Notes under the pieces: model-generated
What the model was told of the DNA's origin: nothing
Databases searched by the model: none
What the model saw: only the letters and a program-made list of their open reading frames with translations
Position numbers and translations under genes: made by a program
Shown: positions 2,906 to 46,870 of the stretch, piece after piece
How the letters are laid out: each line of letters begins with the position of its first letter
How positions within the stretch are numbered: the stretch's first letter is position 1
Assembly (NCBI GenBank): GCA_031362805.1
Contig: JANLTG010000053.1
Location: 42,207-106,206 of the forward strand
Source: a bacterium
Lineage (GTDB): Bacteria; Verrucomicrobiota; Verrucomicrobiia; Limisphaerales; RI-55
Reading direction: 5' to 3'
Length of the DNA stretch: 64,000 bases

Positions 2906-5900
2906 ATGAAGACCCGCCTCACTCCGTGGTCAGTCGGTTGTGCAATGACAGCTCTGCTGGCGGCGGCGCTTACGCTGCAACCCGGCGAGGCCGCGACGTT
3001 CACGGTGAGCAACACCAATCAATCCGGCGCCGGGTCGCTGCCCCAAGCGATCCTTGACGCCAACGCCAGCGCCGGCGCGGACTTCATCGCCTTTAACATC
3101 CTGTCCGCCGGGCTGAACATCGCGCCAAATGCCGCCCTGCCGGCCATCACAGAGGCGGTGACCATCGACGGCACCACGCAGCCCAGCTTCGCGGGTTCGC
3201 CGTTGATCGAGATCAGCGGGCAAAGCGCGGGGGCGGGAGTGGACGGCTTCCGGATCTTGTCCGGCGGTTCGGTGATTCGTTCGCTGATTATCAACCGCTT
3301 CCTGGGTGACGGCATTGAACTCACCAACGGAGGCAACAACCTCATCGCCGGGAACTGGATCGGACTGAATAACAACGGCACGTTGGACCAAGGCAACACC
3401 TTCAACGGCATCACGGTCACCAACTCACCCAACAACACCATTGGTGGACTGGCGACCGTCGACCGCAACGTGATCTCCGGCAACAACCAGAACGGGGTGT
3501 TCATCCAAGGCCTCGCGGCGACCGGCAACGCGGTGCTCGGCAATTATATCGGCCTAAACGCGACGGGGGGCGTGGCGGTGGCGAACAGCCTGAGTGGCGT
3601 GCTCATCAATCACGCGCCCGCGAACACCGTTGGCGGCACCGCCGCCGCCGCGCGCAATGTCATCAGCGGCAATTCGCAAAGCGGCGTGCGGATCGAGAAC
3701 ACCAACGCATATGCGAATCTCGTGGCGGGCAATTATCTCGGCACGTCCACCAACGGGATTACGGACCTCGGCAACGGAAACTACGGCGTCCTGCTGTTCA
3801 ATGCGCGGAGCAACACGGTGGGCGGGGTAACCGCCGGTCACCGCAACGTGATCGCTGGAAACAATGTCGCGGGCGTGCGCATCGAAGGGGCCAACGCCAC
3901 CACCAACGCCGTGCGGGGCAACTTTATCGGCACGACGATCACCGGCGCAAGCGCGCTCCCCAACGGCGGCCCCGGCGTCCATGTGCTGACCAGCGCGGCC
4001 GGCAACACGATCGGCGGCGCCGCTGCGGGCGAGGCCAACGTCATCGCCTTCAACAGCGTTGATGGCGTGTGGGTGCAGGCCGGCACGAACAACGCGATCC
4101 GCGCAAATCTCATCCACTCGAACGGCGGCCTCGGCATCGATGTGGACCTCGACGGCGTGCTGGCCAATGACGCGGGCGACACGGACGTCGGCGCCAACCA
4201 GCGGCAGAATCATCCGCTCCTGACTGGCGCGACCAATTCGGCCGGCGGCATCACGATCGCCGGCACGATGAACAGTACGGCAAGCCAGGCGTTCACCGTG
4301 GATTTTTATGCGAGCAGCGTCCCGGACGCCACCGGCAGCGGCGAAGGCGAGTTCTATCTGGGAAACACGGCGGTGAACACGGCCGGGGACGGCAATACGA
4401 CGTTTCAAGTGACGTTGCCCAGCGTGGCGCTCGGGCGCTGGGTCACTGCCACCGCGACGGACGCCAACGGCAACACGTCGGAATTTTCGCCGGCCGTCCG
4501 GGCGGAGAGCACGCTGGTACCCGCGACGTTCACGGTGGTCAACACCAACGACTTTGGAGCGGGTTCGCTGCGCCAGGCGATTATCGACAACAACCTTGCC
4601 GTCAGCAGCGCGAACAACGTGATTCAGTTCGCGATTCCCAATTCAGGGCCGCACGTGATCCGGCCGGCGGCCGCGCTGCCGACGTTCCTTGAAGCTGCGA
4701 CGGTGAATGGCTTCACTCAAAGCGGCGCGGTTTCCAACACGCTGGCCACCGGCAACAGCGCGGTGTGGATGATCCACCTCGACGGCGTCAGTGCGGGCAC
4801 GGGCGCGAACGGCCTGCGCTTCGCCAGCAGCGGCAACGTCGTACGCGGCTTGCAAATCTTCCGCTTTAACTCCGACGGTCTCGAGTTCACGAACAGCCAC
4901 AACAACGTCGTTGTCGGCAACAGCCTCGGCCGATTGGATGAGACGGGCGTCACGTTTGCCAACACCGGGGACGGCGTGCATCTCCTGCAATCCTCGAATA
5001 ACCGCCTGGGCGGCGCGCTGCCGGGTGATCGCAACATCATCGCGGGGAACGGCAGCGACGGCATTGAGATCAACGGCACGAACTCGGTCGCCAATCTGGT
5101 GCTCGGCAATCACATCGGCACGGATGGCGGCGGCACGGTGGATCGCGGCAATCTCCAGAGCGGCATCCTGATCAGCGGCGCGCCGAACAACACGATCGGC
5201 GGCACCGCGGCCGGCGCGGGCAATCTGCTTTCCGGCAACACCCAGGAAGGTCTCGAGATCAACGGGCTGGCGGCCACCAACAACGTCGTGCTCGGCAACC
5301 GGATCGGCACCGAGGTCACCGGGCTGACGGGTCTGGGCAACGCCGGCGCGGGCGTGCTGCTCGCGAACAACTCGCGCTTTAACCTGATCGGCGGGCTCGC
5401 CGCCGGCGCAGGCAACCGCATCGCCTTCAACGGCGGCGACGGCATCAACGTGGCGAACGGCACCAACAACGCCCTCCGCGCGAATCTGATCTGGACGAAC
5501 AGCGCGCTCGGCATCGATCTCGATCCGAACGGGCTCACCGCGAACGACGCAGGCGATATCGACGCGGGCGGCAATCAGTTGCAGAACTTCCCGGTGATCA
5601 CCAACGCCATGCTCAACGCGGGCAGCACCGTGATCCAGGGCACGTTCAACTCGACCGCGAGCACGACCTTCGCCCTCGATTTCTTCCAGAGCGTCTTCCG
5701 CGATGTCGCCACGGTGAACGGCGAGGGCCAGTTCTATCTCGGTTCAGCCAATGTGGTCACTGACGGCAGCGGCAATGCGACCTTCGACGTAAATCTACCG
5801 ACGACGGCGACGGGCGGCCGGTGGATCACGGCGACGGCGACCGATCCGAACGGCAATTCATCCGAGTTCTCGGGGGCGTTCACCGCGACGTCGCTGCTGC

Positions 5901-8900
5901 CGGGGCAGCCGTTTCTGGTGACCAACACCAATGACGCCGGGCCGGGCTCGCTGCGGCAGGCCATCCTCGAAAATAACCTCACTTTCAACGGCGCGCCGAA
6001 CACGCTCAACTTCGCAATCACGAGCGCGGAACCGCATGTGATCACGCCGGCGACCGTGCTGCCGACGATCACGGCGGCGGTGATTGTGAACGGCTACAGC
6101 CAGGCGGGCGCCTCAGCCAACACGCTGGCCACCGGCAACAACGCAGTGCTCAAGATCCGCATTGATGGCAATGCCGCGTTTTTCAACGGCCTGCGCGTCG
6201 CGGCGGCGGGGACGGTGGTGCGCGGCTTGAGCTTCACGCGGTTCAGCAATCCGATGTTGCAACTGGACGCCCCCGGTTTCGCCAGCGTCGAGGGTTGCTT
6301 CTTCGGGCTCGATACCGACGGGGTGACGAGCTTCAGCCCCGCGAGTGAAGGTGTGAACGTGAACAACTCGCCGGGCAACGCGATTGGCGGCAGCGCGCCC
6401 GCCCAACGCAATGTCTTCGGCGGCCTGAGCACCGCGATCGCACTGGCCAGCAACGGCGCGGTGAGCAACACCGTGACCGGAAACTACATCGGCACGGACC
6501 GCCATGGCACCGGCGGCTCCGGCAACCTGCGCGGCATCACGATTAACGGCGGCCGCACGAACAGCATCGGCGGCACGACCGCCGCACTACGCAACGTGAT
6601 TTCGAGCAACCGCTTCTTTGGCCTCCAGATCATCGGCACAGGTTCCGCAGGCAATCGCGTCGTCGGCAATTATCTCGGCTTGAACGCGGCGGGCACCGGG
6701 CCGATGGGCAACGGCACGCACGGCATCGACATCAGTTCCAGCACGGCTTTCGGCAACGTGATCGGCGGGATCGCCGCCGGCGAAGCCAACGTCATCGCCC
6801 ACAGCGGGCAGAACGGCCTGAACGTCAGCAGCGGCACGAACAACACCCTGCGCGGCAACTCGATTTACAACAGTGGTTACCTGGGGATCGACTTGGGCGG
6901 TTTCGGCCTCGTCACCTTTAATGATGCTGGCGATGCCGACACCGGCGCCAACCAGTTGCAGAATTTTCCGGTGGTCACCGGCGGTCAGGGCACGCTCTCA
7001 GGCACCACCATCCAAGGCACGCTCAACAGCAAACCGAGCGAAACCTTCCAGCTCGATTTCTATTCGAACCCCGCGACTGAAGGCGACGGCTACGGCGAAG
7101 GCCGCAAGTATCTCGGCTCGGGCAGCACCACTACCGGCGCAGACAGCAATGCGGTCTTCTCGATCAACGTCGCCGGCGTCATGGACGGCCGGCACGTGAC
7201 CGCGACCGCCACGGATGCGAATGGCAACACGTCGGAGTTCTCGCTGTCGGCCCCGCTGGCGGTGACGTTCGCGCCCACCACGTTCACGGTGGTGAACACG
7301 AACGACGCCGGGCCCGGCTCGCTGCGACAGGCGATCCTCGAAAGCAACTTCAAACCTAGCGGCAGCCGGAACACAATCGCCTTCAACATCACCGGGGCGG
7401 GGCCGCATGTGATCCGGCCGCTCACCCCATTGCCAACCCTGGTCGAGAGCGCGTTGATCGACGGCTACTCGCAGCCGGGCGCGGCGGCGAATACGGCGGC
7501 GATCGGCTTCAATGCGGTGCTGCAAATTGTGCTGGAGCCCGGCACACCGTTCCTTGACGGCTTGACCTTGGATTTCCAGAACAGCGTCCTGCGCGGCCTG
7601 GTGATGACTGAATTCGGCGCTGCCATCACCGTGCGCGGCACAGGTCATGTCATCGAAGGCTGCGTGCTGGGCCTTACTGCCGTGGGCTTGCCCGCACCAA
7701 ACGCCCAAGCGATCAACGGCCTGCCCGGCAGCAGCAACAACGTGATTGGCGGCATCACGCCCGCCGCACGCAACGTCATTGCCGGCCGCAATAGCGCGCA
7801 CGCGATCACCCTGCAAAACACCACCGGCTGGCTGATCCAGGGCAACTTCATCGGCACGGACTTGTCGGGCTTGAATACCGCCGGCAGCCAGGCCGGCGGC
7901 ATCTCCATATCGAGCGGCACGGGCAACGTCGTCGGCGGCACAGCACCCGGTGCCGGCAATGTCATCGGAGGCAACGACAGCGGCGACGGTGTTTCCATTT
8001 ATCTCGGTTTCAGCAACCGGGTGGAAGGCAACTTGATCGGCGTCGGCGCGGACGGTGTCACCATCCTCCGCAATAGTCCCGCCGGCGTGTCGATCGAGAA
8101 CTCCGCCCAGAACGTCGTCGGCGGCAGTTCAGCGGGCGCACGCAACATCATCTCCGGCAATGGCACCGGCGTCTCGTTGGCGTTCTCCGGCACCAGCTCG
8201 AATTATGTCGTCGGCAACTTCATTGGAACCGACCTCACCGGCACGCTGCCCGTCCCGAACTATTACGGCGTGTCGATCAGCGCGGATACCAACTTCATTG
8301 GCGGCGTGCTCGCGGGCGAGGGCAACCGCATCGCTTTTAACCAGGGCGACGGCATCCTGGTCGGTGGGGGCACGGGCAACGCGCTGCGCGGGAACGAAGT
8401 CTTCGCCAACGGAGGAATCGGCATCGGCCTGGGTTTCAGCGTCGTCACTCCGAACGACCCGGGCGATCCGGACGCTGGCGCCAACAACTTGCAGAACTTC
8501 CCGGTGCTCGCGAGCGGCTCCATCAACGTGGCCAGCACCGCGGTCGGCGGCGCGTTGAACAGCACCCCCAGCACCCAATTCACCCTCGATTTCTTTGCGA
8601 ACACCGCGCCCGATCCCGCGGGCAATGGCGAGGGCCAGCAATACCTCGGGGCCACCACCGCCACCACCGACGGCGCGGGCAACGCCGTGTTCAGCGTGAG
8701 CCTGCCCCGGCGCGCGGTCGGACGCTATCTGACCGCGACCGCCACCGATCCCGCGGGCAACACGTCCGAGTTCTCCGCCGCCTTCCGCGCCGCCAGCACG
8801 CAGCCGGGACTTACCTTCACGGTGACCACGGAAGCGGACAGCGGACCGGGCTCCTTACGGCAGGCGATGCTGAATTCTGAAACCAACCACGCGGGCGCCA

Positions 8901-11900
8901 ACAACGTGATCCAGTTCGCGCTCTACGGGCCAGGCCCGCATACGATCGCCCCCACCACTGAACTGCCGCTCCTCCGCGAGGCGGTGACCATCGACGGCTT
9001 CACCCAGTCCGAGGCCAGCGCCAACACGCAGGTCAACACGGACAATGCGGTGCGCAAGATCCGGCTCGACGGCTTCGCCACCGCCGGCGCCTACTTCGAC
9101 GGTTTGAAACTCGCCGCCGGGGGAAGCGTGATTCGCGGGCTGTGGATCAGAAATTATGCCGGCAACGCGATTGAAATCACCAGCTCGGGCAACGTCGTGG
9201 AGGGTTGTTACCTGACCGAGAACAATTCCCCCCTCGTGATCAATTCCGGCGCCGGCAACCGCATCGGCGGCACGACTCCCGCCCAGCGCAACGTGATCGT
9301 GGGCAACGCCACCGTCGGCGTGTACGTCTATTCAACCGCCAGCTCAGGCACGCTGGTGCAGGGCAACTTCATCGGCCTGAATCCCGATGGCATCAGCACG
9401 AGCGCGAATGACATCGGGGTGCAATTCGCCGACTCGCCGCTCAACGTGGTGGGCGGCAGCGAGGCGGCGCGCAATTTCATCGTGGGCAACGCCGCGCAAG
9501 GCGTGCTCATCGACGGCACCGGCTCGGTCAGCAACCGGGTCGAGGGCAACTTCATCGGCGTGCGACCGGACGGCGCGGTGGCGGGCAATGGTGGACCCGG
9601 TATCCTGCTCTCCGGCGGCAGCGACAACGTCATCGGCGCACCGCGGGCGACGCCGCCGGGCCAGCTCTCCCTGCAAGGCATTCCCCCGGCGACCGGCGTG
9701 ATGAATGCCATCGCCGCCAATCTGGGCGCCGGGATCGAGGTCGTCGCGGGCGTGCGGAATTCACTCCGCCGCAATCTGGTGTACAGCAACCGTGATCTCG
9801 CCATCGACCTGGCTGGGGACGGCGTCACCGACAACGACGTGCTCGATGGCGATCCAGGCCCGAACAACTTGCAGAACTTCCCGGTCATCAATTCCGCCAC
9901 CATTGGCGCCGGCAACATCACCCTCATTGGTTCGCTGGCGGCCGCCCCGAACACCAGCTACCAGATCGACATCTACTCGAACGTGAATTGCGATTCGCCG
10001 TCGCTCCACGGCGAAGGGCAATACTGGCGGGGCTCGTTCCACGTGACCACCAGCGGCGCGGGCACGGTGAACTTCAATCAGACCGTGAACCAGCCGGGCA
10101 TTGGTTCATTCATCACCGCGACGGCGACCGATCCGGTGGGCAACACCAGCGAGTTTAGCCGGTGCGTGCTGGGCGACTGCAGTGACAACACGCCCAGGGT
10201 CTTCCTCGTCACGAACACGAATTCCTCCGGACCGGGTTCACTTGCCAACGCCGTCGACCAGGCCAACGCTGGGTGCTCGCCGGCCACCATCAACTTCAAT
10301 ATCGCGGGCGCGGGCGAGAAACGTATCTTCTTGTTCGAACCGCTGATCTTGAGCAGCCGCATCACGATCAACTTCGCGAATCAGGGCGGCGGCGGCGTGA
10401 TAATCGACGGTTCCTCGCTTCCGGCCGGTGATTCAGCGATCAATATCGTCGCAAATTACGTCCTGGTTCAGGGCGCCAATATTCAAAACATTGGCGCTGC
10501 GGTCCAAGTCGGAGCCCCCGCTGCCCCCGTGAGCAATGTTACTTTCACCGGCAACATGGTGAACGTTACGGGACGAGCCGGGATTTTGGCCTACCTCAAC
10601 AGCTCGACGATCACCGCCACCGGCAAAGACATCGCGGGCAACTTCGTGGAACTGGTGAACGGAACTGGAAACACCGTTACCGTCAGCGGGCAGAACGTCG
10701 GTGGCGACCTCTTGAACACCATGGGAAACGGTTCGGTGGCGGTGAACCTCAATGGTAGGTTTTTGATCGAGGGCAGCATAGACAGCCGCGAGGGTGGATC
10801 TCCACCTCTGCCTCCAATCATTTCCAACGCCTCCTGCACGGGGCCCAACACCATTAGTATCACTATGAGTGGCTCCGCCCCGGCCAACTTCCCGGTGACA
10901 CTTACACCTATCTACTTCAACAAGGTCAATCCGAAGTCGGGTATTGCGGGCACCACAGTGGTTGGGAACTCCGACGCTATGGGCGAATATTTATTTAGTT
11001 TGATGGAATCCCCGCCCACCGGGACCGTAGCGGTATCAGGCTTGGTGACGATCGCTGGCAACTCATCCGAAGCCAGCCTCCCCGTCAGTCTGGAAGGGTG
11101 TGCGGTAGATTCGCCTTTCATTGTTCTGCCCTTCGAAAACCATCCCCTCGCCGGCGTGGCCGGCGATCCGATCAGCACGTTTAACGGCGAGCTCTACGAT
11201 ACCCTGCTGCCCGATCTGAACCTCGGCGGGCCGATGCCGCTCCTTTTCCAGCGCTTCTACGGTTCGGCGCTCGGCCGCGCGACGCTCCTCCCGCGCCTCG
11301 GCACGAACTGGACCCACAACTTCGAGGCCACGCTGACCAACAGCGCGACGGCCGTCGGCATCTCGCTGCCGCCGGGCTTGATCCTCGCCTTCACCAACCA
11401 GGCGGGCGTGTTCACGCTGTTGAACCGCGCGGATCTGCCGTTCCAGTTGCGAACCAGCGGCGCCAATTACCTGCTGGCGGACCCGCGCGATCAACGGGTC
11501 TTTACCTTCAACAGCTCCGGCCAGCTCACGCAGATCGCGGACAGCCGCGGCAACGCCCACACGCTGGCCTACGCCGGTGCCCTGCTCTCCTCGGCGACCG
11601 ACGGCCTCGGCCGCACCCTGACGTTCAGCTACTCGGCGGGCGGCTCGCTCACGAACGTCAGTGACGGCACCCGTAACGCCGGCTTTCAACAATCGGGCAA
11701 CCTGCTGGCGGTGTCGCGCACGCCGCTCAACTTGCCAACCACCAACAACTACACGGTGAGCGGTCCCTTCGGTGCGTTGCTGCAATCCAGCCAGCGACCC
11801 GTGGGCAACACGCCGCTCACGCAGTTCTACGCCGGTTCCGCGGTGACGTCACAGGGTGTCGCGAGCAGCCCGCCGTCGACCATTCAATACGTGGGCCCCG

Positions 11901-18462: not shown

Positions 18463-19320
18463 TCACACCTGAATACCAGCGAGGAAAACAGCCAGGCGGC
18501 GATGATGCTCGGTCATGCTGGCATCCATTCCGCACTCAGCAGCCAGTTCGCCAAATGGTTCGCTCCAACTGGACTGAGGCACTGGCATGGACGAGGGCAC
18601 AGAGTGAGTGCCGCGACGACGAAAGGTCGCCGTGATGTTCTCCGCGAGCCGGGTGCGGTCCATCGTTCCTGAATCGAACAGAAGGACCATATCCACCAAA
18701 TCCTTCACGCGCGTATTCGGGCGCCCGGTTCGCGGGAGCGTGTAGGCGTGCAGCTTCTCGGCGAACTGCTCCTCGCGCGATATGGCGGGCAGTTTGGCTC
18801 TTGCGATGCCAGCAAAGCCCAGCCAATCCTGACCTTCAAGAATCTCAAATGGTTCGCGCAGAACATCGCCGGCGCTGACATCGAGGTGAAATCCGGCAAA
18901 TCGCCGGCCCGCCATCTGCGCCTCGACGGGATACCTTGCGCCACCGTAAGGCGCGGCATCCAAATCCATCGTCGGCTCGCCGATGGTGAATTCAAACCCG
19001 TCTTTCAGGTCAACGGCCGCTGCACGTTCGAGCGAGGCACGCACCGCGGCGGCGTTCCACTCCTTGGCGCCATCAGGCAGCTGACGAATGGCCAGGTCAA
19101 CGTCGCGCGTGGTTCGCGCTTTCTGAATGCGAAGCTCCATCGCGTACCCACCCTTGAGCAGCCACGGCGCATCGGGTTCATGGAACAGGCGACACAGCAG
19201 CCGGTCGGATGCCGCCTGACGACGCATCCTTTGGATGTCGCCGCCTTCCCGGCGCACTGCGGCGAGAAGTCGGTCCTCCAAAGCGCGTCGGAGTGCCGAG
19301 GGCGTCTGGTAGCGGCTCAT
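18463..19320 (-). CDS. abiEii: AbiEii/AbiGii-family nucleotidyltransferase toxin (type IV TA / abortive infection)
   Basis: 285 aa. Nucleotidyltransferase motif LKGGYAMELRIQKARTTRDVDL. 4-nt ATGA overlap with the upstream AbiEi-like gene. Confidence 0.8.
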   Translation of the reverse strand: MSRYQTPSALRRALEDRLLAAVRREGGDIQRMRRQAASDRLLCRLFHEPDAPWLLKGGYAMELRIQKARTTRDVDLAIRQLPDGAKEWNAAAVRASLERAAAVDLKDGFEFTIGEPTMDLDAAPYGGARYPVEAQMAGRRFAGFHLDVSAGDVLREPFEILEGQDWLGFAGIARAKLPAISREEQFAEKLHAYTLPRTGRPNTRVKDLVDMVLLFDSGTMDRTRLAENITATFRRRGTHSVPSSMPVPQSSWSEPFGELAAECGMDASMTEHHRRLAVFLAGIQV

Positions 19321-19922
19321 GGGAATAGACTCATGACCAGTTCCCGCCGACCCGCACCTGCCTTGGCCGTCGAAATCTGACTTTCGGTAATCAGCCCGCG
19401 ACGACGAGCTTCTTTGGTGACTTCTCGGAGGTCATTAAGCGCATTGGGGTCGGCTTCCGCCAGATCGCACAGCGCCCGGAGTGGACGACAAACCGAGAGA
19501 CCTCGTAGCTGGGTGACCTCGCCCGGCATTAGCTGCGCGTAGTGCAGTGTCACCGCTTTGGGAAGCCGGCTGTTGCGGCGGAATGTCGGCGGTACGGTCA
19601 GGTGTATCTTTGCCGGGTTGAAATCGCCCAACTCGAACAGACTCAGGGCCGACTGATGCGAAACCGCCGCCGTCGGCTTTTCGCTCCGTCCACGCGACCA
19701 AAGCAGCCACACCATCATCTGCCCATCCTCGGGCGACGGCAGATGCGTCATACGGTAAATGCCGCGCCAGACCCGCGCCCAATTCCCGGCACGCACATGG
19801 TAGGGGTGGGTATTGTCCGCGTAGCCGGCCTCAATGGCCTGCTTCGTGGTGAAATACCCCTGCTGGTCCTGCGCAATGCTCATCAGGGCGGCAAACGGAT
19901 CGTTCTTCTTCGCCATGCACAC
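19317..19922 (-). CDS. abiEi: AbiEi-family antitoxin / transcriptional regulator
   Basis: 201 aa. N-terminal wHTH-like segment QGYFTTKQAIEAGYADNTHPYHVRAGNWARVWRGIYRM, typical of AbiEi. Translationally coupled to the AbiEii gene. Confidence 0.75.
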   Translation of the reverse strand: MCMAKKNDPFAALMSIAQDQQGYFTTKQAIEAGYADNTHPYHVRAGNWARVWRGIYRMTHLPSPEDGQMMVWLLWSRGRSEKPTAAVSHQSALSLFELGDFNPAKIHLTVPPTFRRNSRLPKAVTLHYAQLMPGEVTQLRGLSVCRPLRALCDLAEADPNALNDLREVTKEARRRGLITESQISTAKAGAGRRELVMSLFP

Positions 19923-19926
19923 ATCC

Positions 19927-20307
19927 TCAACTTTTTTGAGGAATTGTGCAAGCCGGCTTTGGCTGAGCGGAATGGCCTTCCAGCGCCTTTGCCTCGGTCA
20001 CGACGATCTCTCGAATGACCGGCTGGTTCTCCGCCAGCGCCGGACCATGCGGATTCGGGATACCCGTAAGCAACGAAAGCTCCATCCGCTGCATCGCCGA
20101 TTCGATGCGTCGCAGCGAGTTTCCATGAAGCGTGACTTCATGCGTGGCGAAAACCATCCGTAGCCGCTGTTCCTTCCCGGCGCTTTTGAGTTCAGCGAAA
20201 ACGAACTGGTCGAACGGCAGCAGCAAGCTTAGTTCAGCCGATACTTCGATTTTGACCGCGCGAACGTTCGGGTCGCTCGCCCAATATTCGGGTGATTTTG
20301 TGCTCAT
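19927..20307 (-). CDS. Hypothetical protein, tightly coupled upstream of abiEi
   Basis: 126-aa ORF that ends 4 nt before the abiEi start. No motif recognised. Its first 74 nt overlap the tail of the relaxase-like remnant, so the start is uncertain. Confidence 0.4.
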   Translation of the reverse strand: MSTKSPEYWASDPNVRAVKIEVSAELSLLLPFDQFVFAELKSAGKEQRLRMVFATHEVTLHGNSLRRIESAMQRMELSLLTGIPNPHGPALAENQPVIREIVVTEAKALEGHSAQPKPACTIPQKS

Positions 20308-21055
20308 GTTTTTGCATTTGTTTCAGGTGAGGACGACGCGCTAGTTTCAGCCGGCAGAACGTGTCGGCGGCGCGTTGGCCAAATCGAAGCATGTAGCCGT
20401 GCAGCCGATCCCAGAGGCGAACGCCACGGCGTAGGACCAGACCGGACGCAAGTTCCATCGCGAGCGGGCGATGACCGGAGCGGGTTACGTTCTCGCGCAA
20501 TTGCTCCTTGTCCGGCGTGTAGATGCGGATGCTACGCCGGCCGCGCGAAATGGTCACATACCATTGCTGCGCGTTCGTCGCCGCCTTGATGGTGGAATCG
20601 GAGAACAGGACGTAATCAACGGTCTTGCCTTGCGAGCCGTAGGACGTGACGGCGTAGCCGGGGAGGAACTCACGGAAGCTCGCATCCAGCACCCGGCAAT
20701 CGGTGAGTTCGACTCCGCCATCCGCACGAACCGACTTCACCGCGACAAGTTCACCATTGGTGACGCGGCCACCAGACTTCAACTTGCGATTGGCTTTGAG
20801 GTGCAAGCGGTCGCCGGAGGCAAACGCAACCTCACGCGCCTGACAGACCGAAATCCGGTGGAGCATCTTGTTCGACACCGTAACGAACCGCCCTCCGACT
20901 TCGACCAACAGCCCCGTCTTGAAAATCCCCGACAGCTTGCCTTTCGCCCCGGCGTCGGCTTCGCGTACTTTTTGGTTGAACACGACGATGGCATCCTGCG
21001 GATAGAATCGCTCGTCTCGCTTTTGCGCGTTGGTGAGGTCCATTCGTTCGAGCAC
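20234..21055 (-). pseudogene. C-terminal remnant of a MobF/TraA-type relaxase-helicase
   Basis: 273-aa ORF containing the helicase C-terminal signature GYAVTSYGSQGKTVDYVLFSDS ... QQWYVTISRGRRSIRIYT. The relaxase and ATPase N-terminal domains are absent from every frame upstream. Confidence 0.55.
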
Positions 21056-21122
21056 CTGAACGGTTGAATCAAGAGCGCCAAGCAGCCCTGGGAAAAGCGG
21101 CGCGGGCTGCCCGGCCGCCGCG

Positions 21123-21215
21123 CACCCCCCTCGGGGGGTGTCCCCTTGTTCAGCTTTGATGGATCTAACGGTTGACTACTCATGTAACACTCCATTCCTT
21201 TCATCGGAGTGTTAC
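21123..21215. promoter_or_regulatory. Two perfect inverted repeats upstream of the relaxase remnant (candidate oriT relic)
   Basis: CACCCCCC-tc-GGGGGGTG at 21123-21140. GTAACACTCC-(12 nt)-GGAGTGTTAC at 21184-21215. Confidence 0.3.
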
Positions 21216-21509
21216 CCCTTTCTCAGGTCATCGGTGTCTCATGATCTGGTCGCTAAGACAAAGAACCAAGCCCCGAGTCAGGTCGAGGCAGCGTCAGTTG
21301 ACGCGCTTGAAGCGAAAAACCATATCTCGAAGACGCAAACAACCGCAGTCCAACCAAAGCGACGAACGACGGTACGCGTATGAACCCGGGAAGCTAAACC
21401 GCCTTTGCTCATGCTTTTGGTTTGAAGCACGAAGCGTCGCACATCCGCACATCAACCTCTCAGCTCTACTATTGAAAGTTCCTGTTGATTCTGCGAGCGT
21501 CTCCCCGGC

Positions 21510-21585
21510 GGGCCTGTAGCTCAATGGTTAGAGCAGAGCACTCATAATGCTTTGGTTCTCGGTTCGAGTCCGGGCAGGCCCACCA
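21510..21585 (+). tRNA. Intact tRNA with CAU anticodon (Met or Ile2/lysidine type), carried by the element
   Basis: GGGCCTG TA GCTC AATGGTTA GAGC A GAGCA CTCATAA TGCTT TGGTT CTCGG TTCGAGT CCGGG CAGGCCC A CCA. This is a 76-nt canonical cloverleaf with an encoded CCA. Confidence 0.9.
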
Positions 21586-21749: not shown

Positions 21750-22004
21750 ATGAGCGCGACAACAATTTCCGAATGTCAGACCCTTGACGTGAAAAGCAGC
21801 GCAACCGAACTCGGCGTTTGCGAAGAAACAGTGCGGCGCCTCGTTCGCCGGAAGGTGCTGCGGAAGCTGCCTGGGCTCCGGCGCATCCTGATTCTCAGGA
21901 CTGAGCTCAAAAGATACTTGGGAGCTGGAGAAGTAGAGTTGGCTACCAAAGCACTCTCAAAAAACGGCCCAGAAACGGCCCAGAAGAAAACAATGTTTGC
22001 GTAA
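21750..22004 (+). CDS. xis: Excisionase-like helix-turn-helix DNA-binding protein
   Basis: ATG at 21750 within track ORF 21663..22004. The segment SSATELGVCEETVRRLVRRKVLRKLPGLRRILILRTELKRYL resembles the excisionase/MerR-type HTH_17 family. It lies at the element end opposite the integrase. Confidence 0.6.
   Translation: MSATTISECQTLDVKSSATELGVCEETVRRLVRRKVLRKLPGLRRILILRTELKRYLGAGEVELATKALSKNGPETAQKKTMFA
21966..21989 (+). repeat. Arm-type repeat doublet CGGCCCAGAAaCGGCCCAGAAGAA (right arm)
   Basis: 23 of 24 nt identical to 16936-16959, in the same orientation, 56 bp inside the attR core. Confidence 0.55.
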
Positions 22005-44515: not shown

Positions 44516-46870
44516 TCAGCCGTCACCGAGGATTTCCACTTCCGTTTCCAGTTCAATTCCGCGCGCCGCGCGCACACGCTCGCGGAGCACATCGATCAGC
44601 GTCAACACATCACGGGCCGTGGCATTGCCCTCGTTGACGATGAAATTGCCATGCTCCCGCGACACCACCGCACCGCCGACCCGCGTGCCCTTGAGGCCAA
44701 GTTCATCGATCAGGCGGCCGGCGCCGATCGCTTTCGGGTTTTTGAAGATGCAGCCCGCACTGGGCTGCCGGGGCTGGCTTTCCCACCGTTGGTGGCTGTA
44801 ACCATCCATCCGCGCTCGCACCACCTCGGCGTCGGCCGGTGTGCCGCGCAACACGGCCCCAAGCGCGATGTGATTTCGGAAGAGCGGACAACCGCGATAC
44901 TCGACATGCACCTCGCTGGCGGCCCGCTCGCAGACGTTGCCGTGATAATCCATGAACCGGATGGTCTCGATGGCATCGAACAGCCAGGAGCCCATCGCAC
45001 CCGCATTCATCCGCATGGAGCCACCGAGGCTGCCGGGAATGCCCTCGATGAATTCGAGACCGCCGAGGCCGTGCCGGCGCGCCTCGACGGCGATCGTTTT
45101 CAGACGCACGCCGGCGCCCGCGATCACCCGATCATTCTCAACCTTCCACTGGCTGAAATGCGGATTCGCAAGCGAGATGACGCACCCGCGGATGCCGCCG
45201 TCGCGAATCAGCAGATTGCTGCCGCGACCGAGCAACACGAAGGGAATCTGCCGCTGATTGCAAAAGCGCAGCACCGTGGCGAGATCCTGCTCGGAAGCCG
45301 GTTCGGCAAAGAGATCGGCGCTGCCGCCCACCCGCATCGTGGTCCGTTTCGACAACGACTCGTCTTTCAACAGCAATGAATCGGCGGTGAGCTGGCTGCG
45401 CAATTCCTGGAAATAGCCATCGTTGCGACCGGGAGCTTCTTCCCGCAGTTGCGCCGCGAGCGCGTGAGCCACTTGCGTGATGTCCCCTGCGCCGAGGAAC
45501 AGCACGAGGTCGCCCGGCTGCATCGCCGCCCGCACGAGTCCGCTCAGGTGCAGTAGATTGGGAACCTGCTCTACCTGCTGGCCACGGGCGCGGATTGCGT
45601 CCCCCAGCACATCGCTGGAAATGCCCGGGATGGCGGCTTCGCTGGCCGCATAGATTTCAGCGAGCCAGAGCCGGTCGGCTTCCGCGAAGCACGAGGTGAA
45701 TTCCGGCAGCAAATGTTTGGTCCGCGTGTAGCGGTGCGGTTGAAAAGCCACGAGCAGCCGCGCCGGCCGGAGCTGGCGCAAGGACTCCAGCACGGCGCGA
45801 ATCTCCTGCGGATGATGACCGTAATCATCGAACACGCGGAATCGTGAGTCGCGAAAGAGCTCCTGTTGCCGGCGGGCCGCGCCGCGAAAGCCTTCAATCG
45901 CGCGCGCGATTTCATCCGCCGGCCGGCCCAGACGATGCAGCAACGCAATCACGCCGGTGGCGTTGCTCACATTTTTCTCACCAATGATCCGGACCGCAAA
46001 GCTGCCGAGCTTCGAGCCGGCGTGCCAGACTTCAAATCGCGTGGGCGCGTCCGGCAACGCGGTTTGAATTTCGCAACGGTAGTCCGCCGACAGCGAGAAC
46101 CCATAGCTCGTGGTGCCCGCGCGTCCGGCAAACGATTTGACGAGGTGAACGTCATCGGCACACCACACCAGATCGCCGGTGATCTGGCCGGCGAAGCGGC
46201 GGAAGTCCGTGAGCACCTCTTCGAGTCCGGCGTAGTGATCGAGATGCTCGACATCCACGTTGAGGAGGATCGCATGCCGCGGCCGGAACTCGCAGAGCGT
46301 GCCGTCGCTCTCGTCAGTCTCGAGCACGAAAAGGTTTTCCCGCGAGTTGCCCAACGTCTGGCCGTGGCTCCACGCGGCGTGCGGCTTCACCTGCGGCACG
46401 CTCGCGCCGATCGCGTAGGCCGCCGCCACGCCTAAGTTGCGGAGCGCAAACGCCAGCAACGCCGAGGTGGTGGTCTTGCCGTGCATCCCCGCCACACAAA
46501 CGGGGCTGGCAAAGGTGGTCAAGGCCGCCAGCGTCATGGCCCGGCGAGCCAGCGGCCAGCCATGCCGCACGGCGAACTGCAACTCGGGATTGTCCTGCGC
46601 GACCGCCGGCGTGAAGACCACCAACGCGGGCTTGCGGCCGGCCAGGTTTTCCTCCGCATGGCCGATTTGAATTCCAGCCCCTCGCTGCCGGAGTTCCTGG
46701 ATTTCGGAATTGGCGTGCCGATCCGAACCCGCAACTTGAAAACCGAGGTCAAGAAAGAGATTGGCCAGACCGCTCATGCCGCAGCCGCCAATGCCAACCA
46801 GATAAATCAACTCGCCGGCGGCGAGGCCGGCCAGCAGTTCGCGAACTTGTGAGGTGCCGAGCGGGTTCAT
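44516..46870 (-). CDS. murC/murB: Bifunctional UDP-N-acetylmuramate--L-alanine ligase / UDP-N-acetylenolpyruvoylglucosamine reductase (MurC-MurB fusion)
   Basis: 784 aa. The MurC part is roughly aa 1-476 (GIGGCGMSGLA, GMHGKTTTSA, DDYGHHP). A linker reads REEAPGRNDGY. The MurB part is roughly aa 487-784 (TTMRVGGSADLF, LGRGSNLL, GGLEFIEGIPGSLGG, AGCIFKNP). The junction is near nt 45410-45440. Confidence 0.85.
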   Translation of the reverse strand: MNPLGTSQVRELLAGLAAGELIYLVGIGGCGMSGLANLFLDLGFQVAGSDRHANSEIQELRQRGAGIQIGHAEENLAGRKPALVVFTPAVAQDNPELQFAVRHGWPLARRAMTLAALTTFASPVCVAGMHGKTTTSALLAFALRNLGVAAAYAIGASVPQVKPHAAWSHGQTLGNSRENLFVLETDESDGTLCEFRPRHAILLNVDVEHLDHYAGLEEVLTDFRRFAGQITGDLVWCADDVHLVKSFAGRAGTTSYGFSLSADYRCEIQTALPDAPTRFEVWHAGSKLGSFAVRIIGEKNVSNATGVIALLHRLGRPADEIARAIEGFRGAARRQQELFRDSRFRVFDDYGHHPQEIRAVLESLRQLRPARLLVAFQPHRYTRTKHLLPEFTSCFAEADRLWLAEIYAASEAAIPGISSDVLGDAIRARGQQVEQVPNLLHLSGLVRAAMQPGDLVLFLGAGDITQVAHALAAQLREEAPGRNDGYFQELRSQLTADSLLLKDESLSKRTTMRVGGSADLFAEPASEQDLATVLRFCNQRQIPFVLLGRGSNLLIRDGGIRGCVISLANPHFSQWKVENDRVIAGAGVRLKTIAVEARRHGLGGLEFIEGIPGSLGGSMRMNAGAMGSWLFDAIETIRFMDYHGNVCERAASEVHVEYRGCPLFRNHIALGAVLRGTPADAEVVRARMDGYSHQRWESQPRQPSAGCIFKNPKAIGAGRLIDELGLKGTRVGGAVVSREHGNFIVNEGNATARDVLTLIDVLRERVRAARGIELETEVEILGDG

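Follow-up and report, generated by a model that had tools for sequence, protein, structure and literature searches.

A giant RHS protein with a putative signal peptide, a beta-helix module array, a hypervariable C-terminal tail and a conserved downstream partner gene

Anatomy of the giant RHS gene

In the window (the whole stretch of DNA analysed, 64,000 nucleotides), the ORF at 2906-14782 of the forward strand encodes a protein of 3,958 aa and 406 kDa, with its ATG at 2906 and its stop codon at 14780-14782; an in-frame TTG lies 5' of this ATG, at 2858. The order of its parts is confirmed as a putative Sec-type signal peptide, five modules, a truncated sixth module, a DUF6531 plug, a YD-repeat shell, an Rhs-associated core and a C-terminal tail (Table 1). 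A first-pass annotation had already proposed a four-part layout, with a signal peptide and 5.5 beta-helix modules ahead of a complete RHS cage, and Pfam and NCBIfam profiles, a module HMM and an AlphaFold2 model of one module bear out its modules and cage. The signal peptide, which had been described as cleavable-looking, is a by-eye assignment: n, h and c regions can be made out together with an A-x-A-like site, and all eight family members inspected likewise have a signal-like N-terminus that stops directly ahead of the ATFTV cap.

Table 1. Features of the giant RHS gene and its downstream partner
Feature	Position in window	Strand	Basis
Putative signal peptide, Sec-type (SPI-like), aa 1-29	2906..2992	+	By-eye reading of sequence; MKTR..., hydrophobic core, ...PGEA then ATFTV
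Module 1 (M1, long, 510 aa): cap, beta-helix, Ca-loop-like motif, Ig-like domain	2993..4528	+	Beta_helix E 2.5e-08
Module 2 (M2, short, 461 aa)	4529..5911	+	Beta_helix, NosD; AF2 pLDDT 93.4; Foldseek 8wm1_A TM 0.70
Module 3 (M3, short, 457 aa)	5912..7282	+	Module HMM score 526
Module 4 (M4, long, 511 aa)	7283..8815	+	Pairwise BLASTP, profile searches, module HMM
Module 5 (M5, short, 462 aa)	8816..10201	+	Module HMM score 463
Truncated module 6: cap, short beta-helix, Ig-like region ending ...GNSSEAS, into RHS plug	10202..11161	+	Weak module-HMM match
DUF6531 N-terminal plug of RHS cage, aa 2753-2813	11162..11344	+	PF20148 E 1.8e-10
YD-repeat shell	11345..14158	+	RHS_repeat, YD_repeat_2x, TEN_YD-shell; solved Rhs cores E 3e-40 to 1e-28
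Rhs-associated core, aa 3752-3831; motifs RxRWYDP...RDP, P....DPAG	14159..14398	+	TIGR03696, motifs
Polymorphic C-terminal tail, 127 aa, charged, Pro-rich, and stop codon	14399..14782	+	No known family
Conserved partner, 201 aa from ATG 14803; alternative start TTG 14797	14803..15408	+	RHS_repeat, TSP3_bac; 17 loci

The modules start at residues 32, 542, 1003, 1460, 1971 and 2433. Five full modules of 457-511 aa had been described as alternating between long and short; their number, their size range and the motifs that bound them stand (cap F[TL]V..TN..G.GSL.QAI and end TATATD..GN[TS]SEFS in M1-M5), but the order is long-short-short-long-short, with no strict alternation, and M2 is 461 aa long. 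Each long module (M1, M4) contains one additional 63-aa unit, which we read as about three beta-helix rungs. Self-comparison of the repeats by pairwise BLASTP gave 34-47% amino acid identity among M1-M5 (E 1e-60 to 1e-105), a similarity far above chance, and DNA identity was about 65-69%. An orthologue from another sample (P0121, 4,022 aa) is collinear with the giant protein, with 46.8% identity over 3,891 aa, and its modules match position by position. The partial sixth module that had been claimed weakly matches positions 1-203 of the module HMM, and the same element is retained in P0121; it is real but truncated. A word-indexed search with module 6 and the plug as query retrieved no homologue. 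Family members carry from 0 to 5.5 modules ahead of the same RHS subfamily, and this family of signal-peptide RHS proteins is small and probably verrucomicrobial, judging from the labels of the homologues.

The contig is metagenome-assembled and the gene repetitive, and the giant gene might be suspected of being a chimera or the product of repeats that expanded or collapsed during assembly. We consider the chance of such an artefact negligible. With DNA identity as low as that between the modules, the repeats are ancient and too diverged for assembly collapse; module order and length pattern recur in the orthologue, which comes from another sample; modules are fused to the same RHS subfamily in at least eight more proteins; and an independent Logan assembly (L088) is 99.97% identical to window positions 9866-16797. 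The giant gene is real and old.

Profile searches of single modules detected Pfam Beta_helix (PF13229) in M1 and M2 (34.1 and 30.7 bits; gathering threshold 25.9) and NosD (PF05048) in M2 (26.9 bits; cut-off 23.6), with a sub-threshold NosD match in M4, while M3 and M5 had no Pfam beta-helix match and were recognised only through the module HMM. A weak Pfam Big_6 match was found in M2, M3 and M4. The AlphaFold2 model of M2 (pTM 0.93) contains a cap helix, a right-handed beta-helix and an Ig-like sandwich, and the modules are accordingly predicted to be right-handed parallel beta-helices. An Asp/Asn-rich, calcium-loop-like linker (NDxGDxDxGxNxxQNFP) occurs in the modules, whose ends look similar to the Ig repeats of biofilm-associated (Bap) type. 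The cap had been called CSLREA-like: the resemblance in motif stands and the family assignment does not, given that the cap reads GSLRQAI rather than CSLREA and that no CSLREA-type NCBIfam model matches any of the six module caps at E <= 10. Source databases name module homologues "CSLREA domain-containing" or "titin" (CSLREA by JGI or NCBI for some).

The top Foldseek match to M2 is PDB 8wm1 (484 aa). Its similarity (profile E 2.9e-23) spans a whole module, beginning at the signal-proximal cap and reaching the Ig-like end. Its depositors labelled it "DHS dehydratase", the name of an unrelated enzyme, and a literature search found no paper on the structure, so this label carries no weight in our interpretation of the modules. 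Below 8wm1, the matches are tailspike depolymerases, alginate epimerases and polygalacturonases, which, together with the NosD and Beta_helix family matches, would fit an array of tailspike-like enzymes (glycan depolymerases or epimerases) that clears capsule or exopolysaccharide and so brings the RHS capsule to a target surface. We regard enzymatic modules as rather improbable, however: these matches reach TM scores of only 0.2-0.46 at 10-15% identity, the sole close solved homologue is 8wm1, with its unrelated enzyme label, and what the modules conserve is an Asn ladder, glycines and the linker motif, with no obvious acid catalytic pair.

The remainder of the protein is an RHS cage. The plug scores 41.4 bits against DUF6531 (PF20148; cut-off 24.1), the shell matches RHS_repeat (PF05593, E 5.9e-57 and 1.4e-23) and TIGR01643 (E 7e-52), and the core scores 51.7 bits against the Rhs_assc_core model TIGR03696 (cut-off 32.5), with both aspartyl autoprotease motifs intact (RARWYDPKTAAFLTRDP and PLEFADPAG). 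The cage, 1,079 aa in length, is of Rhs-core size, in agreement with the YD shell of about 1,080 aa with canonical RHS core and DPxG site reported previously. With YD shell, motif-bearing core and N-terminal plug all present, the protein is assigned by its sequence features to the RHS/YD-repeat toxin family.

Variable tails and a constant partner

The most informative features of the locus are three that the first-pass annotation had overlooked: a conserved downstream partner gene, tails that are hypervariable, and the lack of any immunity gene. Across 17 loci the tails fall into about 14 unrelated types that diverge straight after the core, and the tail in the window is unrelated to those of the 16 related loci. 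Two of these loci, L086 and L087, share flanks of 88-93% DNA identity, while the 690-745 bp that encode their tails cannot be aligned; the tail alone has been swapped, exactly at the core boundary. Such a swap is a hallmark of polymorphic toxin diversification, and a hypervariable C-terminal domain exchanged by recombination, one criterion for polymorphic toxins, is what these loci present. Two further criteria, a co-varying immunity gene and a known toxin family in the tail, found no counterpart. No cognate immunity gene is linked at any of the 17 loci, which is atypical for antibacterial polymorphic toxins, and no convincing small ORF lies between the RHS gene and the partner in L086 or L087. 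The window tail has no Pfam or NCBIfam match at E <= 1, and none of eight tails searched (that of the window and seven others) matches a Pfam toxin family at E <= 1; one of the eight has a short FG-GAP repeat match only. The window tail is the shortest, at 127 aa, and looks largely disordered and low in complexity.

The partner gene is a previously undescribed, constant companion of the RHS gene, lying immediately 3' of it in all 17 loci. Apart from the partner, no neighbouring gene is conserved across these loci, immunity and secretion genes included. Its product combines a putative signal peptide, two YD hairpins, TSP3 Ca-binding repeats and an FN3-like sandwich, and is 45-57% identical between loci with unrelated tails. 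In its AlphaFold2 model (pLDDT 83), which contains the two YD hairpins and the FN3-like domain, the hairpins superpose on fragments of TcB/TcC (TcdB1-TccC2, YenB/C) and RhsA shells at ~1.2 A over 41 residues. At the sequence level the YD segment shows generic YD similarity to the cage repeats and matches no particular one of them. Residues 80-203, by comparison, match the extreme C-terminus of many large Verrucomicrobiota ORFs; scanned ORFs ending in the TSP3 and FN3-like part include subtilases, a sedolisin, a GH28 enzyme, a GDSL/BACON protein and a BspA-LRR protein. A scan for promoters and terminators around the operon was uninformative. We considered the partner as an immunity protein and rejected this, as its sequence is conserved across loci with differing tails and it carries a putative signal peptide of its own.

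The tails can also be read in a non-toxic sense. The giant protein might be a teneurin-like adhesion or cell-cell recognition protein, its stalk and cage mediating attachment or kin recognition and its variable tail conferring specificity or serving as a ligand; 17 loci without an immunity gene, tails that match no toxin family, a window tail that is short and of low complexity, and the Bap-like Ig repeats at the module ends would all suit such a role, and YD shells have been repurposed for adhesion in metazoan teneurins (PMC13018210). We judge a purely adhesive function unlikely, given that the core retains its autoprotease motifs, that the tail is replaced exactly at the core boundary between near-identical loci, and that a cage enclosing its own C-terminus is ill-suited to ligand display.

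Proposed export route and mechanism

The host context is diderm, as shown by an LptB-like ABC ATPase, an LptA/LptD_N-domain protein and a KdsC-like hydrolase encoded in the window. To our knowledge, protein export in Verrucomicrobiota is little studied, and how diderms display or release RHS capsules independently of T6SS and Tc systems is poorly understood. A Pfam and NCBIfam scan of the giant protein, of the window ORFs above 220 aa and of all but a few of those of 150-220 aa found no PAAR, VgrG, T6SS, LXG/WXG or TcA/TcB element. The absence of these usual delivery tags, pointed out in the first-pass annotation, was thus borne out, but it is not anomalous: proteins with RHS repeats behind a signal peptide are an established Sec/T2SS class among the polymorphic toxins (Zhang et al., 2012; PMC3482391, Table 1), and Sec-signal, adhesin-stalked YD shells are known as bacterial teneurin-like proteins (PMC13018210). 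An effector that depends on a T6SS or Tc system encoded elsewhere in the genome would be compatible with the 64 kb inspected, and the nearest solved Rhs cores are indeed those of T6SS effectors. This we hold to be very improbable, since all family members inspected have a signal-like N-terminus, the protein lacks PAAR, VgrG-binding, TcB beta-propeller and TcA-binding elements, and a 272-kDa N-terminal stalk seems unlikely to permit T6SS spike loading.

In Acinetobacter, a CSLREA protein with a single module is secreted through the T2SS (A. baumannii, PMC9245377), and by analogy the default hypothesis for the giant protein is therefore Sec plus T2SS. No secretion-system gene is conserved near the loci, T2SS-E-type ATPase genes lying near just two of the 17, and an RHS cage, once folded, may not fit through a secretin channel because of its width.

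On balance, and with moderate confidence, we favour reading the locus as a two-gene cassette, consisting of a Sec-exported polymorphic RHS protein and its partner, that presents a caged variable effector on a stalk, and its host probably belongs to the Verrucomicrobiota. After cleavage of the signal peptide, the giant protein would fold outside the cytoplasm into stalk, cage and tail. The idea of a stalk presenting an RHS capsule, put forward in the first-pass annotation, is a reasonable reading of the predicted structure: 5.5 modules of about 272 kDa, each with a capped right-handed beta-helix, a calcium-loop-like linker and a Bap-like Ig domain, would by our estimate reach ~50 nm when fully extended, at ~10 nm for each module. 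The stalk may act as a spacer or adhesin, possibly glycan-binding, that holds the loaded capsule off the cell or targets another cell. Plug, shell and core would form a closed cage of about 117 kDa, in which the aspartyl autoprotease of the core would cut after DPAG and leave the 14.5-kDa variable tail inside, to serve as the effector in a target cell. The partner would be co-transcribed and Sec-exported and would use its two YD hairpins to dock on the cage, much as the YD sheets of TcB and TcC are joined, supplying in trans the TSP3 and FN3-like module that many verrucomicrobial exoproteins bear C-terminally and that the RHS protein could not bear itself because its own C-terminus would be locked in the cage. 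Passage across the outer membrane would most likely be of T2SS type or follow a lineage-specific surface-sorting route that recognises the TSP3 and FN3-like module.

A bolder proposal, which we put forward tentatively and consider doubtful, is that the RHS gene and its partner constitute a delivery system of a new kind, with two components and no need for an immunity gene. The two YD hairpins of the partner would lengthen the sheet of the RHS cage and so attach in trans the TSP3 and FN3-like module, which would be an undescribed C-terminal sorting or anchoring signal of Verrucomicrobiota exoproteins. If true, it would explain how a protein with a capsule-sealed C-terminus is routed to or held at the outer surface of a diderm, and would bring to light a lineage-specific pathway of surface sorting that is new. 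RHS capsules are a widespread means of packaging toxic or bioactive protein cargo, and the family offers a tractable case, with a stalk of 0 to 5.5 modules, immunity-free hypervariable cargo, an invariant partner and, in that partner, a C-terminal module also present in many secreted enzymes of the phylum. Should the partner prove to be an adaptor, it would be a new RHS accessory and would provide a candidate Verrucomicrobiota sorting signal.

Comparison with known systems

The Sec/T2SS RHS toxins, such as WapA of Bacillus subtilis and that of Streptococcus suis, share with the giant protein a signal peptide (putative here), an RHS cage, a DPxG core and a hypervariable tail swapped at the core boundary. 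WapA belongs to monoderm hosts and has cell-wall-binding repeats and a cognate immunity gene (see also PMC12704120). The giant protein, in contrast, has a diderm host, a 272-kDa beta-helix/Ig array, a YD-TSP3-FN3 partner and no linked immunity gene. With bacterial teneurin-like proteins (Raoelijaona et al., 2026; PMC13018210; PDB 9ifo, 9pt5) it has in common a Sec signal (putative here), variable N-terminal adhesion domains by which the protein is presumably displayed, a plugged YD shell, an Rhs core of autoprotease type and a C-terminal domain that is polymorphic and ~15 kDa in size. The teneurin-like superfold is not seen, as neither an NHL beta-propeller nor a TIP domain was detected in the giant protein at E <= 0.01; the cage is 1,079 aa here compared with 2,144-2,237 aa for the teneurin-like PDB chains, and similarity to 9ifo is confined to the core region (E 5e-22). 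Teneurin-like proteins are associated with immunity proteins, and the six phyla listed for them do not include Verrucomicrobiota (PMC13018210).

The best sequence matches to the cage are T6SS Rhs effectors (for example RhsA 7q97, Tse5, Tse15 and Salmonella bongori Rhs; E 3e-40 to 1e-28), which share the DUF6531 plug, YD shell, core layout and a similar cage length. Unlike them, the giant protein has a putative signal peptide and a stalk, without a PAAR/VgrG-interacting N-terminus, an Eag chaperone or T6SS genes in the window. The TcB/TcC cocoon of ABC toxins encloses an autoproteolytically cleaved variable tail in an RHS capsule, and there two polypeptides give YD strands to one sheet, a precedent for the docking proposed for the partner. 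No Pfam or NCBIfam match to the SpvB/TcB N-terminal region or the TcB beta-propeller was found in the protein or the window, which contains no TcA, and the partner adds two YD repeats rather than half a cocoon. CSLREA-type exoproteins (8wm1; the A. baumannii T2SS substrate, PMC9245377) are stand-alone single modules, whereas here 5.5 modules are concatenated and joined to an RHS cage. Signal-peptide RHS toxins and adhesin-stalked YD shells are thus already known, and the combination of a module stalk with a partner is a variant of them.

Architecture of the giant RHS protein

The RHS gene is a single ORF for a 3,958-aa product (406 kDa), as the first-pass annotation had read it. Its N-terminus (MKTRLTPWSVGCAMTALLAAALTLQPGEA, followed by ATFTV) has n, h and c regions as in a Sec signal peptide and is a putative one; in all eight related proteins inspected, a similar leader ends immediately ahead of the same ATFTV cap. 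A module HMM matches five full stalk modules (M1-M5) and a truncated sixth copy; the number of modules and the partial sixth one given earlier thus stand, while strict alternation of length does not, the order being long-short-short-long-short. Long modules differ from short ones by one additional 63-aa unit, read as about three beta-helix rungs. Pairwise protein identity among M1-M5 is 34-47% (E 1e-60 to 1e-105), and because their DNA identity is only about 65-69%, they are old duplications incapable of collapse in assembly.

The beta-helix call is borne out by Pfam Beta_helix (above cut-off in M1 and M2), NosD (above cut-off in M2) and an AlphaFold2 model of M2 built with 25 homologues (pLDDT 93.4, pTM 0.93), in which a cap helix leads into a right-handed beta-helix (about residues 30-330), with a linker and then an Ig-like sandwich after it. 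The linker carries an invariant motif, NDxGDxDxGxNxxQNFP, whose sequence appears calcium-loop-like, and the sandwich terminates in TATATD..GNTSEFS; Bap-type Ig repeats (7dm0) align with this module end. The caps match no NCBIfam model, and their CSLREA-like character noted earlier is a resemblance of motif. Stand-alone or tandem exoproteins with the module are very common (>4,000 matches), under the names 'titin', 'CSLREA domain-containing' or 'parallel beta-helix'. The top structural and profile match (TM 0.70, Foldseek E 1e-18, profile E 2.9e-23) is PDB 8wm1, a single-module protein of 484 aa, aligned from the cap region through the Ig-like end. Its chain 8wm1_A, the only solved whole-module homologue, resembles the modules in its signal-like leader, CSLREA-type cap GSLRWAIEQANANPG, beta-helix and ...TD..G.TSE.S Ig-like end. 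A literature search found no paper describing 8wm1, and the depositors' label, '3-dehydroshikimate dehydratase', may not be the family's function and is not relied on. Remaining Foldseek matches are weak (TM 0.2-0.46; tailspikes, alginate epimerases, polygalacturonases).

The cage is complete, with the canonical core and DPxG site first recognized by eye: the DUF6531 plug, RHS repeats and TIGR03696 core all score well, and at 1,079 aa it is as large as a complete Rhs core. Among solved structures, T6SS Rhs cores match it (E 3e-40 to 1e-28), and teneurin-like proteins match the RHS protein at the core only.

Features of the RHS gene, its partner and related loci (window nucleotides unless a locus or aa is given; aa are of the RHS protein unless stated)
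Feature	Position	Strand	Detail
RHS gene	ATG 2906, stop 14780-14782
Module starts	aa 32, 542, 1003, 1460, 1971, 2433
Module lengths, M1-M5			510/461/457/511/462 aa
DUF6531 plug	aa 2753-2813		E 1.8e-10
RHS/YD repeats, dense	cage shell		E 5.9e-57
TIGR03696 core	aa 3752-3831		51.7 bits (cut-off 32.5)
Core motifs			RARWYDPKTAAFLTRDP and PLEFADPAG, both present
Partner gene	14797/14803-15408	+	begins fourteen bases past RHS stop codon
Partner C-terminal module	about 15040-15408		partner residues 80-203
Membrane protein	15427-16623	-	398 aa
29-nt direct repeats	16931-16959, 21960-21988		93% identical
Elements bracketed by repeats	16880-21585		tRNA-Met at 21510-21585
MurC-MurB ORF	44516-46870	-	784 aa
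Tail-coding segments	L086:1561-2250, L087:8895-9639		690-745 bp
Second modular ORF	L098:15455-20596
Stalkless RHS gene	L085:5453-9973		1,506 aa
MshE/T2SS-E ATPase gene	L085:3422-5191

A conserved family with an adjacent partner

Relatives were sought by exhaustive HMMER search with aa 2433-3632 as the query. P0121 (4,022 aa) is collinear with the RHS protein (46.8% identity across 3,891 aa) and has the same 5.5 modules in the same length pattern; module-by-module scores between the two peak on the diagonal, so the array is older than the split of their lineages. An independent Logan assembly is 99.97% identical to window 9866-16797. Together these dispose of a chimeric or collapsed assembly, and the RHS gene is neither an assembly artefact nor unique. 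In other members of this RHS subfamily the module number is lower: about five (P0139), 4.5 (P0127), five or fewer (L098 and L101, whose N-termini are lost where the contig ends), three (L087), one to two (P0128, P0123, P0158, P0160, P0281, and L096 and L099 with two module-HMM matches each) or none (L085). About 5 kb downstream of its RHS-partner pair, the metagenome locus L098 has another large ORF, which gives five module-HMM matches and shows no RHS part up to the locus end.

The gene right after the RHS gene encodes a partner homologue (45-57% identical) in 16/16 related loci with enough sequence, and in all-against-all clustering of neighbours these two were the only conserved genes. The partner, named 'YD repeat-containing protein' and represented by about 35 clusters in 5.8 billion sequences, comprises a putative signal peptide and one YD repeat pair (RHS_repeat), then TSP3_bac repeats and a sandwich at the C-terminus. 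In its AlphaFold2 model (pLDDT 83), four strands pair into two YD hairpins, followed by TSP3 loops and an FN3-like domain modelled with confidence; the modelled hairpins superpose on shell fragments of TcdB1-TccC2, YenB/C and RhsA (about 1.2 A over 41 residues). The TSP3 and FN3-like C-terminal module has no family model. Many large Verrucomicrobiota ORFs (L004-L081) end in it; among those scanned are S8 subtilases, a sedolisin-like protease, a GH28 enzyme, a GDSL/BACON protein and a BspA-type LRR protein. Such a distribution at exoprotein C-termini is as expected for a sorting or anchoring domain, and the module is a candidate for a lineage-specific one.

Convergent to the partner gene is one for a multi-pass membrane protein of no Pfam family, also found in the Logan assembly and not conserved in other loci.

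Tail replacement without an immunity gene

The last 127 aa of the RHS protein are charged and Pro-rich and match no family. The post-core sequences of the 17 loci (127-275 aa) sort into about 14 types with no relation to one another, and none of the eight tails compared with Pfam matches a toxin family. Through the shell, L086 and L087 share 88-93% DNA identity, which resumes just 3′ of the stop and continues through the partner; the unalignable tail-coding segment is their sole difference, and no ORF, immunity ORF included, travels along. This is a clean case of tail replacement, and the family therefore shows the recombinational tail exchange typical of polymorphic toxins, but without a linked immunity gene. 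Self-protection during synthesis might not need one if the precursor is exported unfolded. That sister cells are left unprotected points to targets that are non-kin or non-bacterial, or to a role other than toxicity.

The 275-aa tail of the stalkless L085 protein weakly matches Secretin (PF00263); its gene immediately follows one for an MshE/T2SS-E ATPase, with a pseudopilin-like (N_methyl) gene 5 kb downstream.

Genomic setting, export and known systems

The window is chromosomal and comes from a diderm, with a dcw cluster (mraZ to ftsZ), an LptB-like ATPase, an LptA/LptD_N-domain protein, a KdsC-like hydrolase and HprK, and homologue labels point to Verrucomicrobiota. Within the dcw cluster, one ORF fuses MurC (Mur ligase domains) to MurB (FAD_binding_4 and MurB_C). 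The region adjoining the RHS cassette resembles a small integrated element (about 5 kb): between the direct repeats lie an integrase-like ORF with a weak Phage_integrase match (E 0.0099), an AbiEii/AbiEi toxin-antitoxin pair, an unknown ORF of 273 aa and a tRNA-Met. L002/L003 (CAYWMD010000007.1) and other TPA MAG records titled 'uncultured Bifidobacteriaceae/Bifidobacterium' hold ExbB/ExbD/TonB, Tol-Pal-like and OmpA-family genes and verrucomicrobial-type proteins; these labels are almost certainly wrong.

We propose that Sec would export the unfolded chain, that the modules would fold outside the cytoplasm into a calcium-stiffened stalk, and that the cage would shut there around the self-cleaved tail. 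The partner could dock by extending the YD sheet, by analogy with TcB and TcC, and supply in trans the exoprotein C-terminal module; the RHS protein, with its own C-terminus enclosed in the cage, would have no way to bear that module in cis. The stalk may be a spacer or targeting device for the capsule. The outer membrane would most probably be crossed by a T2SS-like or lineage-specific route. A CSLREA-domain protein of A. baumannii is a T2SS substrate (PMC9245377). T2SS-E-type ATPase genes lie near 2/17 loci, which is not significant.

Among polymorphic toxins, proteins that join a signal peptide to RHS are already listed as a Sec/T2SS class (PMC3482391). In bacterial teneurin-like proteins, Sec signals and a YD shell occur together with N-terminal adhesion domains that vary and C-terminal domains that are polymorphic (PMC13018210). 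The RHS protein differs from teneurin-like proteins in having neither NHL nor TIP, its cage leaving no space for an NHL propeller; from T6SS Rhs effectors in having no PAAR or VgrG; and from Tc subunits in having no TcB propeller or TcA. In line with the first reading, scanned window ORFs of at least 150 aa include no T6SS, PAAR, VgrG, Tc or T7SS families. What is new is the stalk of tandem beta-helix/Ig modules, a YD-TSP3-FN3 partner that is obligatory, and polymorphic tails with no immunity gene alongside.
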